From Acidimicrobiia bacterium (GTDB lineage Bacteria > Actinomycetota > Acidimicrobiia > Spongiisociales > ZC4RG35): a DNA stretch of 64,000 nucleotides. Positions 52,037 through 55,234 of the stretch are shown here, one piece after another. The notes under the pieces were generated by a model that was not told the origin of the DNA, did not search any database, and saw nothing but the letters and a program-made list of their open reading frames with translations. The number at the start of each line of letters is the position of its first letter. The stretch's first letter is position 1. Position numbers and translations under genes: made by a program. Location of the stretch: NCBI GenBank assembly GCA_965215185.1, contig OZ244034.1, positions 32,001-96,000 of the forward strand, in the 5' to 3' direction.

Positions 52037-52624
52037 ATGACGCAGTTGTCCTCTCGACCCGCGCTGGTGGTGGTGGATGTCCAAAACGACTTCGCCGACC
52101 CGCGGGGTTCGCTGTATGTGCAGGGAGCGGGCGCAGTGGTGGAGGCGGTGAACCGGTTGGTGGAAAGCGCCGGTGCCCAGGATTGGCCGGTGTTCTACAC
52201 CCAGGACTGGCATCCGCAGACCACTCCCCATTTCGCCAAGGACGGGGGGATTTGGCCGGTGCATTGTGTGGGAGGGTCGACTGGAGCGGCCTTTCATCCC
52301 GATTTGAAGGTGGAGGGGGTGTCGGTTAAGAAGGGCGGCGCCGGGGAGGACGGCTATTCGGGATTCACCATGCGAGACCTAGTGGAGGGCAAGGACCGGC
52401 CCACCGAGTTGGATTCGCTGCTGCGCCAGGACGGGGTCACCAGGGTGGTGGTGGTCGGGCTGGCATTGGACTATTGCGTGAAGGACACTGCCCTGGACGC
52501 GGTCCGGTTGGGATACGAAGTGGAGGTGCCGCTCGGCGCCACCGCGGCGGTCAATCTGTCTCCCCACGATGGCGACCAGGCTGTCGCGGCGCTGAAGGCG
52601 GCGGGGGTTTCGGTTACTGGCTGA
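52037..52624 (+). CDS. pncA: Nicotinamidase/pyrazinamidase
   Basis: VDVQNDF, QDWHP, WPVHCV, KG..YSGF, GLALDYCV. Confidence 0.95.
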   Translation: MTQLSSRPALVVVDVQNDFADPRGSLYVQGAGAVVEAVNRLVESAGAQDWPVFYTQDWHPQTTPHFAKDGGIWPVHCVGGSTGAAFHPDLKVEGVSVKKGGAGEDGYSGFTMRDLVEGKDRPTELDSLLRQDGVTRVVVVGLALDYCVKDTALDAVRLGYEVEVPLGATAAVNLSPHDGDQAVAALKAAGVSVTG

Positions 52625-54224
52625 GGGACGCGGCTCGACGCAGGAGTAGGCCGCGGTAGGATTTCCACAGAGGATTCTCGGTGGGCCGCAGGGTGGGAAA
52701 GAGTATCACATCCCGGATGTGAGTGCGGTTGGTCAGCAGCATCACCAAGCGGTCGACTCCCAGGCCCAGGCCTCCGGTGGGAGGCATTCCGTAACCCAGG
52801 GCCAGCACGAAATCGTCGTCGACGGGGTGCAACTCCGGATCGTCCGCTCCCAACAGAGCCGCCTGGTTCTCGAATCGGAAAAGTTGATCGACCGGGTCGT
52901 TCAACTCCGAGAAGGCATTGGCGAACTCCACCCCGGCGATGAACAATTCGAAACGTTCGGTGAGTCGGGGATCGCGGGGGTGTCGGCGCGCCAGTGGAGA
53001 GACTTCCAACGGGTATTCCGTCACGAAGGTGGGGTTACGCAGTTTGGGGACGGCCAGCCGGTCGAACAGCTCGTAAACGACCCGCCCGCTGGTCCATCCC
53101 TCTCGAATATCTAGCCCCAGTTTCTCTGCCTGTCCTTGCAGTAAGTCCCGGGGTGTGTCGAGGGTGACTTCTTCTCCCAGCACTTCGCTCACCAGTTCCA
53201 GCATGGTGACTTCCCGGTAGGGGGGTTCGAGAGAGAGGGGAGTCTCCAACATGGGGTGCCCGCCCAATGCCTCGCCAGCGGCCTCTTCTCCCACTGTCGT
53301 GGTCCCCGTCGCTTTGGCGGCCACCGCCGGGATGACCTCTTCTATGAGTCTCATCACGTCCCGGTAGTCGCAGAATGCCTGATAGGACTCCAGCATGGTG
53401 AATTCGGGGTTGTGGGAAGAGTCCACTCCTTCATTGCGGAAGATGCGGCCGATTTCGAACACCCGCTCGAACCCGCCGATGATCAACCGTTTCAGATGCA
53501 GTTCGGTGGCGATCCGCATGTAGAGCTCTAGGTCCAAGGCATTGTGGTGAGTGAGAAAAGGACGAGCGGCGGCGCCGGCTGCCCGGGAGGAGAGGATGGG
53601 GGTGTCCACTTCCATGAATCCCCGGCTATGGAACTGATGGCGCAGTTCCGCTACCACCGCCGAACGGATCTCGAAGGTCCGACGGCTCTGGGGATTTACC
53701 GCCAGGTCCAGGTGGCGGTGGCGGGAGCGTTGCTCGATATCCCGAAGCCCTTTCCACTTGTCGGGTAGGGGAGCAAGACATTTGGCAAGAAGCGATAGTT
53801 CGTTGACGTGGATGGAGAGCTCCCCCCGGCGGGTGGTGATCACCTCTCCGGTAGCGCCGATCCAGTCGCCCAGATCCAGTTGAGATAGCACCGGTCCGGA
53901 TTGGGGGCTCAATGTGGAGCGGGATATGAATAGCTGCAGGTCTCCGGCTTGATCGGAGAAAGCGATGAACACCAAACGGCCGAAGTCTCGGATCGACCGG
54001 ATTCGTCCAGCCACCGCCGCTTTCTCTCCGGTCTGGACATCGGGTCCCAGGCCACCGTAGGAGTCCCGAATATCCCGGGTGGTATGGGTGCGGTCGAAAC
54101 GGGTCGGCCAGGTTTCCAGTTGCTGGGAGGAGAGACTATCCAGGCCTTCCAGACGCTCTTGCACTACCTTTTCCCAAAGCCCGACCGATCCCGGATCTGC
54201 GTCGCTGGGTTGCTGGTCAGTCAT
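52614..54224 (-). CDS. lysS: Lysine--tRNA ligase (class II)
   Basis: OB-fold (AGRI, GELS), ARPF, RIATELHLKRL, FRNEG, HNPEFT, ERFELF, YGMPPTGG.GVDRL. Confidence 0.98.
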   Translation of the reverse strand: MTDQQPSDADPGSVGLWEKVVQERLEGLDSLSSQQLETWPTRFDRTHTTRDIRDSYGGLGPDVQTGEKAAVAGRIRSIRDFGRLVFIAFSDQAGDLQLFISRSTLSPQSGPVLSQLDLGDWIGATGEVITTRRGELSIHVNELSLLAKCLAPLPDKWKGLRDIEQRSRHRHLDLAVNPQSRRTFEIRSAVVAELRHQFHSRGFMEVDTPILSSRAAGAAARPFLTHHNALDLELYMRIATELHLKRLIIGGFERVFEIGRIFRNEGVDSSHNPEFTMLESYQAFCDYRDVMRLIEEVIPAVAAKATGTTTVGEEAAGEALGGHPMLETPLSLEPPYREVTMLELVSEVLGEEVTLDTPRDLLQGQAEKLGLDIREGWTSGRVVYELFDRLAVPKLRNPTFVTEYPLEVSPLARRHPRDPRLTERFELFIAGVEFANAFSELNDPVDQLFRFENQAALLGADDPELHPVDDDFVLALGYGMPPTGGLGLGVDRLVMLLTNRTHIRDVILFPTLRPTENPLWKSYRGLLLRRAASLSQ

Positions 54225-54282
54225 GAGGCTTCAACCTACCAGCCAGAGGCAACAGAAGAAAGACAGTGTCCTTGATGCCAAG

Positions 54283-54327
54283 AAAAAACCGACCCGCCCT
54301 CGGGAGGGGAGGGAGGGCGGGCCGGTT
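54283..54327 (-). terminator. Intrinsic terminator (third hairpin of the candidate sRNA)
   Basis: AACCGGCCCGCCCTC-loop-GAGGGCGGGTCGGTT followed by TTTT. Confidence 0.8.
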
Positions 54328-54425
54328 GTATGCCTGCCGCCCCGGGAGGGGTGGAGGGCGGACAGGCTGCCCGCCGGCCTTCCGGGAGGGGACGGGGAAA
54401 GCCGGCAGGAGGAGTCGTCTTGTTC
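54283..54425 (-). ncRNA. Candidate three-hairpin small RNA with CCCCUCCC loops (6C/cuckoo-like architecture)
   Basis: Three GC-rich stems (54373-54406, 54332-54367, 54287-54327) with different stems but a shared loop octamer; promoter upstream; U6 tract at the end. Confidence 0.75.
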
Positions 54426-54431
54426 CGCCGA

Positions 54432-54460
54432 ATGATAGACAGTTCCCAAGGGTATGTCAA
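54432..54460 (-). promoter_or_regulatory. Housekeeping-sigma promoter
   Basis: TTGACA (54460-54455), 17-nt spacer, TATCAT (54437-54432). Confidence 0.85.
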
Positions 54461-54475
54461 CTCTTAGCGAAGGGT

Positions 54476-55234
54476 TTAGGAATTCAGTCGCAGCACTGCC
54501 AGCAAACCCCTGAGGGTGAGATTGTCTTCTATGTGGGTAATCGTCTCGCACACCGGCCCGATTAGCCTGGACAACCCCCCGGTGGCTACCACCGGCACGT
54601 CCTCGAGATGCTGTTCGGAGCAAATGCGTCTCACCAGACCGTCCACCAGACCCGCCCATCCGAAAACCAATCCGCTCTGAACAGCCTCGGTGGTGTTGCG
54701 TCCGGTGGCCTGTTTGGGGGCGGTGAGTTCCACACGCCGAAGTGCGGAGGCCGCTGCGGCCAGCGCGTCTCCCGCTACTTGCACTCCGGGGGCGATCGCT
54801 CCACCGCAATACGCTCCCGAGGAGTCGATCACATCCACCGTGGTGGCGGTTCCAAAATCAACGACTAGTACGGGCGCTCCGAACCGCTCCACGGCGCCAA
54901 TGGCGTTGACTACCCGGTCGGCGCCCACTTCGCGGGGGTTGTCGATGCGTATTTCCATACCGGTACGGGTTCCGGGACCCACCACCACCAAGGGACCGTT
55001 CACCATCTCCGCCAGCACGGGGCGCATCGCCGCGATGGCAGTGGGTACCACACTGGACAGCGCCGCGCCGTCCAGGGGTTTGGGAACTCTTGCGAGCAGT
55101 CCCTCAAAGAGAATGCGATATTCGTCAGTGGTGCGGGACACCTCGGTCGAGATCCGCCATCGGTGTTTGAGGAATTGACCTTGGTAAGCCCCTACGACTG
55201 TTTGCGTGTTGCCAATGTCGACAGCTAAGAGCAT
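54476..55234 (-). CDS. coaX: Type III pantothenate kinase
   Basis: DIGNT, SSVVP, NPREVGADR, VDFGTATT, GGAIAPG, ATGG, LTLRGL. Confidence 0.97.
   Translation of the reverse strand: MLLAVDIGNTQTVVGAYQGQFLKHRWRISTEVSRTTDEYRILFEGLLARVPKPLDGAALSSVVPTAIAAMRPVLAEMVNGPLVVVGPGTRTGMEIRIDNPREVGADRVVNAIGAVERFGAPVLVVDFGTATTVDVIDSSGAYCGGAIAPGVQVAGDALAAAASALRRVELTAPKQATGRNTTEAVQSGLVFGWAGLVDGLVRRICSEQHLEDVPVVATGGLSRLIGPVCETITHIEDNLTLRGLLAVLRLNS

Follow-up and report, generated by a model that had tools for sequence, protein, structure and literature searches.

The window analysed here, a 64,000-nucleotide stretch of an Acidimicrobiia bacterium (contig OZ244034.1, positions 32,001 to 96,000), carries a compact element between coaX and lysS, in which a promoter-like TTGACA-17-TATCAT sequence (54460-54432, minus strand) precedes three GC-rich hairpins and a U run ending at 54283 (Table 1). 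The octamer CCCCUCCC is common to the loops of all three hairpins, which measure 11-12 nt. The 3' end of the 16S rRNA of the host reads CACCUCCUUUCU, with the terminus ...GGAUCACCUCCUUUCU, and the loops therefore contain, within the octamer, the CCUCC core of the anti-Shine-Dalgarno sequence; the multi-loop anti-Shine-Dalgarno-like design put forward in a preliminary description of this DNA is real. From its sequence features and their conservation, the element is probably a conserved, trans-acting small RNA (sRNA) gene. The host genome (3.12 Mb, GC 60.7%) encodes four WhiB-family genes above the Pfam cut-off, a search in which only Corynebacterium matched among 14 control genomes, and the host is therefore placed in the Actinomycetota.

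Table 1. Features of the coaX-lysS region in window coordinates, with mean pairwise identities over an alignment of 15 complete genus copies
Feature	Position	Strand	Description	Identity
coaX (type III pantothenate kinase), upstream neighbour	54476..55234	-	NCBIfam NF009855, 259.3 bits (cut-off 233)	
coaX 3' end				0.62
Intergenic region upstream of -35				0.64
-35 hexamer	54455..54460	-	TTGACA	1.00
17-nt promoter spacer				0.57
-10 hexamer	54432..54437	-	TATCAT; TATTAT in most relatives	0.86
Inferred 5' leader	54410..54425	-	A/C-rich	0.50
Hairpin 1 (predicted fold)	54370..54409	-	14-bp stem; loop CCGUCCCCUCCC at 54384-54395	0.94
Hairpin 2 (predicted fold)	54332..54367	-	12 pairs and a one-base bulge; loop CCACCCCUCCC at 54344-54354	0.99
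Hairpin 3 (predicted fold)	54287..54327	-	15-bp stem; loop CCUCCCCUCCC at 54302-54312	0.96
U6 tract, probable 3' end	54283..54288	-	Weaker in relatives	
Spacer downstream of the RNA				0.42
Conserved block before lysS	54225-54243	-	GTTAGGTTGA	
TAGGTT within this block	54233-54238	-	8 nt ahead of the ATG	
lysS (lysine-tRNA ligase), downstream neighbour	52614..54224	-	NCBIfam NF001756, 613 bits	
lysS 5' end				0.57

The promoter agrees with the consensus at 11 of 12 positions and was the sole promoter-like site returned by a promoter scan of 53900-54900, where shuffled sequences gave a mean of 0.1; it stands as the preliminary description had it. The transcription start was placed by rule of thumb approximately 7 nt past the -10 hexamer and, like transcription itself and both RNA ends, is a prediction. 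The leader motif GACUCCUCCU, to which that description had drawn attention, is present; it is specific to this genome and unconserved among relatives, and stem 1 includes its 3' part. The statement that the stems differ holds only in part, since hairpins 2 and 3 have the inner stem CCGCCC/GGGCGG in common and, judging from this identity, look like duplicated modules. The loop of hairpin 2 is closed by a U-G pair. Hairpin 3 is a probable intrinsic terminator stem, with the first two U of the U6 tract paired with AA at its foot; since the terminator scan allows loops of up to 8 nt, it went unflagged there. The reported U tract at the end of the RNA consists of six U in this genome and is weaker in most relatives (e.g., GGUUACUUUU), in which another hairpin often sits between the U run and lysS.

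The predicted minus-strand fold consists of exactly these three hairpins (-84.8 kcal/mol, z = -4.38), with none of 200 shuffled sequences as stable, and agrees with the earlier account of three stems sharing a C-rich loop motif. The plus-strand fold (z = -2.43) is a different and less defined structure. The motif CCCCTCCC is not rare, having 15 matches in the window against 11.8 expected; a cluster of three copies spanning no more than 90 nt, each placed in a hairpin loop, is unique to this locus in the 3.12-Mb genome. A structural scan of the same genome for tandem hairpins with C-rich loops, stems of at least 7 bp and spacing of at most 40 nt returned this locus alone, which confirms the observation. 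The host genome has just one copy of the element, which is therefore not a repeat family. The predicted transcript sequence contains no ATG, GTG or TTG, and the open reading frames overlapping the element on both strands gave no Pfam match.

Conservation within the genus is complete, the element being found beside coaX in all 16 other genus genomes, intact in 14 and truncated by contig ends in two (G014 and G001). A DNA search of 40 relatives returned 14 genus matches with E <=1e-44 and only short, chance-level matches in the 24 relatives outside the genus. An additional metagenome-assembled genome (L097) carries the element at 148.6 bits, as scored with R1, a covariance model built from 15 genus copies. 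Loop conservation, on which the preliminary description had made the existence of the sRNA depend, is absolute, all three loops being invariant in the 15 aligned complete copies. Apart from wobble-compatible changes in the stems, variation within the element falls at the predicted bulge of hairpin 2, the sole variable position in that hairpin, and in the two linkers, which carry indels of 1-3 nt among genus copies and thereby exclude a coding reading. Genus conservation, the indels, the reading frames devoid of Pfam matches and the absence of repetition bear out the earlier proposal of a self-contained, strand-specific, conserved non-coding RNA gene.

Two irregularities were observed among the genus copies. 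Three loci (L017-L019, from G006, G005 and G008) have about 30 nt of extra sequence upstream of the sRNA, resembling a partial duplication of the spacer/-10 region, and hence two candidate -10 boxes, TACCAT and TAACAT/TACTAT. In G011, the sRNA region gave two equal-scoring matches on one contig (C10:8085-8316 and 947964-948195), which represent either a duplication or an assembly artefact.

Base-pair variation was tabulated over 11 distinct rows and 39 pairs, and all 429 pair cells are standard. Nine pairs vary, each on one side only, and 10 columns vary overall; seven one-sided variable pairs belong to hairpin 1, where pairing is kept through G-U. Each change in the counted pairs places C/U opposite G or A/G opposite U. 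Such changes are wobble-neutral in an RNA read from the minus strand and would turn into A-C mismatches if the opposite strand were transcribed, which establishes strand specificity and upholds the earlier argument that G-U wobbles favour the minus strand.

On this basis, the element is read as an independent sRNA gene of about 140 nt, which would be driven by its near-consensus housekeeping-type promoter. The RNA would form three hairpins of very high stability, with termination brought about by the third and the U run. The loops could then act as redundant seeds pairing, without Hfq, with GGGAGGGG- or GGAGG-type G-rich stretches in several mRNAs, typically at ribosome-binding sites, thereby lowering the translation or stability of the target mRNAs. 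That the loops pair with G-rich or Shine-Dalgarno sequences, as those of the 6C RNA do, is an account by analogy that we favour with moderate confidence. Neither an Hfq nor a CsrA gene was found in this genome. Gene starts were taken from a crude home-made finder (2558 genes, 84% coverage) which placed the starts of lysS, coaX and dnaB exactly and that of panC 6 nt off; GGAGG lies 3-20 nt upstream of 7.4% of these starts, compared with 2.5% in a control window.

Several results weigh against this reading, the first group concerning the structure itself. The covariation proposed as a check in the preliminary description failed to appear in the coaX-lysS intergenic alignment, with no compensatory double change in any of the 39 pairs, and in a column-shuffle control 279 of 500 shuffles reached the observed score, so that the structure is not separated from chance by this measure. 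A possible pair outside the model, C14-G37, is C-A in 5 of 15 sequences; in those five, the adjacent U-G pair is C-G. The near-invariance of the stems exceeds the needs of pairing, a hint that something else, for example a protein partner, also constrains them.

The second group concerns expression and targets. Among the 24 sequencing runs listed, none is recorded as RNA; the locus is contained in 20 of them. Counts of motifs before start codons revealed no enrichment, and predicted loop duplexes of <=-16 kcal/mol were found in 187 start, 325 coding and 244 upstream windows of 2267 genes, leaving the starts unenriched. The top target candidate, an RluD-like gene, was rejected, its site lying inside the coding region and not being conserved. 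A conserved 6C-type target in dnaB was likewise rejected: the G-rich site (GGGGAGGG) falls in the coding part and occurs in 3 of 17 genomes, being GGGGCGGG or otherwise different in the other 14. The second validated target of 6C is panD (pyruvoyl-type, PF02261), for which a search of the genome found no match, despite the presence of panC and coaX. Restricting the list to clean intergenic 5' regions yielded nothing outstanding as a target, and lysS, coaX, panC and ftsH show weak complementarity to the RNA.

Two side observations were made. PanD belongs to the pantothenate pathway and the RNA sits after panC-coaX, which is noted as a curiosity only. Two gene pairs on G000:C1 (G000 being the present genome) have identical 5' regions, at ~666 and 2994000 and at ~2505156 and 2517915, which points to repeated genes or insertion elements.

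Among the alternatives to a base-pairing sRNA, the one that survives best, unlikely as it is, is a sponge or scaffold RNA whose C-rich loops, held on rigid stems, would titrate or recruit an RNA-binding protein such as a KH-domain Jag/KhpB homologue. A Jag/KhpB-type gene (Jag_N protein) is indeed encoded in the genome, and recognition of a precise shape and sequence would fit both the near-invariance of stems and loops (0.94-0.99, while the neighbouring sequence falls to 0.42-0.64) and the lack of accumulated compensatory changes. The missing enrichment of loop-target duplexes at starts is also counted in its favour. The KH domains of eukaryotic hnRNP K/PCBP bind C-rich triplets, but we know of no bacterial protein that binds poly(C) loops. 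Furthermore, with coaX and lysS as its neighbours, the locus lacks a linked partner gene, and CsrA, the classical sponge partner, was not found in the genome, nor do the loops contain GGA. For 6C of Corynebacterium glutamicum, protein binding has been raised as a possible cause of high RNA stability (PMC5014011), whereas 6C, the closest characterised relative, is described as acting by base pairing in Mycobacterium tuberculosis (PMC6486639).

More doubtful still is a dedicated anti-Shine-Dalgarno decoy, which would have arisen in the genus by hairpin duplication, independently of 6C, and would work as a global switch and not as a regulator of few targets. If this were true, abundant loops copying the 16S CCUCC core would occupy Shine-Dalgarno sequences across the transcriptome, and translation would shift from mRNAs led by Shine-Dalgarno sequences to leaderless ones such as lysS.

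The surroundings of the element bear on a further alternative, a cis-acting role in the panC-coaX-lysS region, either as a strong terminator (or insulator) of several hairpins serving the coaX operon, or as a leader or attenuator of lysS read-through. The genes found upstream of coaX are panC, one for a DUF2520 protein, and ftsH, an arrangement usual in actinobacteria. In 14 of the 15 complete genus loci, the element stands between coaX and lysS in an unchanged orientation, as a cis element would. Hairpin 3 with its U run is also terminator-like, and the weak U run in relatives, often followed by a further hairpin before lysS, makes read-through conceivable. A plain terminator, however, needs neither a perfect -35 nor a good -10, both of which are conserved here while their spacer is not, and termination does not require invariant loops. 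Moreover, Rfam scans revealed no T-box or riboswitch, and the RNA, having no start codon, gives no leader-peptide signal.

The lysS gene itself keeps a conserved -10-like box (TAGGTT) 8 nt before its ATG, and in other genera, where spacers of 12-224 nt lack the element, promoter-like TTGAAC-17-CAAAGT sites stand immediately 5' of lysS. Because of the conserved TAGGTT block and these sites, lysS would appear to have its own promoter and little or no leader, so that the lysS mRNA may be leaderless or nearly so throughout the family. In one genus genome, G010, the RNA is intact and is followed by a convergent DUF222-HNH endonuclease gene (L010 1847-3001), with no lysS within 1.5 kb. This gene is probably a mobile insertion or rearrangement, and misassembly is possible since the genome is 89% complete with 5% contamination. 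The conserved promoter of the RNA and the G010 arrangement both argue against an attenuator or mere terminator, and we regard the cis-acting role as very improbable. Least credible of all is a DNA-level or neutral element without RNA function (a binding-site cluster, a mobile-repeat remnant or a GC-rich structure), which would suit the lack of compensatory covariation and is opposed by substitutions in counted pairs that are wobble-compatible on one strand only, by conservation far above that of the adjacent essential genes, and by a conserved promoter in the correct register.

The candidate sRNA gene is restricted to one actinobacterial genus, as far as sequence searches extended. Covariance-model searches of genomes scored a few dozen prefiltered candidates in each, and their negatives mean that the element was not found in the candidates searched. 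Over 61 family genomes, R1 gave true matches (>130 bits) only in the present genome and G006; the copy in the third genus genome of the sample, G014, is cut by a contig end, and the element was not found in the 58 others. Over 151 class genomes, only the present genome matched and the element was not found in the remaining 150. Weak R1 matches elsewhere (L037, L038, L039) were chance-like and were rejected. Pattern scans covered 80 of at least 120 genome-contig stretches and 80 of at least 118 metagenome-contig stretches, and little weight is placed on absence from them. Among the pattern matches listed, R1 recognised one true member, L097, and none in the metagenome loci, and a fold screen of 265 listed matches found three stable loop-bearing hairpins in L097 only.

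Synteny outside the genus addresses the distribution more directly. With the query used, coaX was found in 31 of the 61 family genomes (30 of 60 besides the present one), and 24 coaX loci from other genera were compared, after dropping L047 (same genus as L046) and L052 and L064 (little downstream sequence). The hairpin array occurs in none of the 24. The coaX-lysS spacer measures 12-224 nt in 15 loci and is interrupted by ~1 kb in six, and the remaining three had no lysS match within the locus. One locus, L054, is from an unpublished genome (G064), and the conclusion is independent of it.

Other 6C-like RNAs were sought in the class and phylum with the Rfam 6C model (RF01066). These genome searches are lossy and did not return the locus of the present RNA itself, so their negatives are weak. 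With this limit, canonical 6C was found over the cut-off in 5 of 121 sampled phylum genomes, all in two families, and in none of 101 class genomes and none of 17 genus genomes. Within the same class, G103 has a 6C-like RNA of 43.1 bits with two CCCCCC loops (L195 541-615, minus strand), downstream of a PucR-type regulator gene. G041, from a sister genus of the same family, carries a multi-hairpin RNA scoring 34.6 bits against 6C (L375 1490-1665, minus strand), with loops UGCCCCCCA and UUUCCCCCCCUU, a promoter-like TTTGCA-18-TACGAT sequence and a fold of z = -6.84; its flanking genes encode a Na+/H+ exchanger and a small-multidrug-export protein. The coaX-lysS spacer of G041 is 48 nt long and empty, and no C-rich hairpins were found in the region of the present genome corresponding to the G041 RNA locus.

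In this one genome pair, each lineage appears to have one such RNA at a different place. Two histories fit this pattern and are not distinguished by one pair: a diverged 6C-type gene may have been relocated, or the design may have been invented repeatedly. The comparison suggests that RNAs of this kind either change place or arise anew. The sub-threshold scores of the present RNA and of those in G041 and G103 suggest that the Rfam 6C model under-detects relatives outside a few families. One further candidate, L196 (G143), was rejected as 6C, being a pair of repeated hairpin elements: at 1530-1680, a two-hairpin unit of ~60 nt, CTCTCCCCCC-RAA-GGGGGGAG-TACCGCC-RAA-GGCGGGGAGGG, is present in two copies ahead of a DEAD-box helicase gene and looks like a REP-like element.

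Known examples of the C-rich-loop sRNA design are 6C, in Mycobacterium, Streptomyces and Corynebacterium, and the cuckoo RNAs of alphaproteobacteria. RsaE/RoxS-type UCCC-loop sRNAs of Firmicutes also use unpaired C-rich motifs that pair with Shine-Dalgarno regions. These differ from the present RNA in phylum, size and architecture, and their family was absent from the 17 matches with E up to 10 that a permissive Rfam scan of 54150-54550 returned. No Rfam family reached its gathering score anywhere in the window. The sub-threshold matches were 6C (33.5 bits against a gathering score of 47, E 0.0084; 54284-54368, hairpins 2-3), ar14 (RF02344; 28.9 against 58.8 bits, E 0.0011, with a composition bias of 18.9 bits), CcsR1 (RF02791; 25.0 against 65.3 bits, E 0.00047) and ar7 (RF02342; 23.8 against 60 bits, E 0.0084), all four being C-rich-loop sRNAs.

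The possibly undescribed form announced earlier therefore belongs to no Rfam family at gathering score, but its best sub-threshold matches are the families that the preliminary description had itself named. Its actinobacterial host belongs, in addition, to the phylum of 6C, and mycobacterial 6C, as published, is also three-looped (PMC6486639).

By its published definition, 6C is a structure of ~80 nt with two loops, each holding at least six conserved cytosines, and in C. glutamicum it is transcribed from a strong SigA promoter (PMC5014011). M. tuberculosis 6C has three loops, of which L2 and L3 are conserved and L1 is not, and its C-rich loops are reported to bind, with no chaperone involved, G-rich ribosome-binding sites in panD and dnaB (PMC6486639). 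The present RNA resembles 6C in phylum (Actinomycetota), in its short length and predicted housekeeping-type promoter, and in its adjacent GC-rich hairpins with C-rich loops, the last of which is predicted to serve as terminator. By bit score, 6C is its best Rfam match. In an alignment with five canonical and one near-canonical 6C sequences, hairpin 3 resembles the second 6C hairpin (CCGCC...UCC...CCCC...GGCGGGGGUCG). The differences lie in a score below the gathering value and in the loops, which carry CCCCUCCC in place of a run of six or more C. Set against the 6C definition, each loop holds 9-10 C, invariant in 15 of 15 sequences, but in runs of at most four that are interrupted by U, and such loops number three against two. 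The motif occupies all three here, unlike the unconserved L1 of M. tuberculosis. Neither coaX nor lysS was found within ~1.5 kb of any of the 10 canonical or near-canonical 6C or 6C-like loci checked.

Cuckoo RNAs consist of 2-4 adjacent hairpins with differing stems and CCUCCUCCC in each loop, and are alphaproteobacterial and usually multi-copy (PMC4615179). The present RNA is likewise modular, with three adjacent hairpins bearing the same anti-Shine-Dalgarno-like C-rich motif in each loop, of which hairpins 2 and 3 look duplicated, and its sub-threshold matches to this group reach 23.8-28.9 bits. It departs from cuckoo RNAs in its motif (CCCCUCCC in 15 of 15 sequences, versus CCUCCUCCC), in its actinobacterial host and single copy, and in scores far under the gathering scores of 58.8-65.3.

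In sum, the RNA looks like a variant of the 6C/cuckoo type that falls in no Rfam family by score, and it opens no new class of mechanism. With its single copy, and in a genome where neither Hfq nor CsrA was found, it lends itself to clean tests of G-C seed pairing independent of a chaperone. Through it, the range of anti-Shine-Dalgarno sRNAs with C-rich loops comes to include a deep and little-studied actinobacterial lineage, where the design is modular, has three seeds and extends the 16S CCUCC core exactly in its loops.

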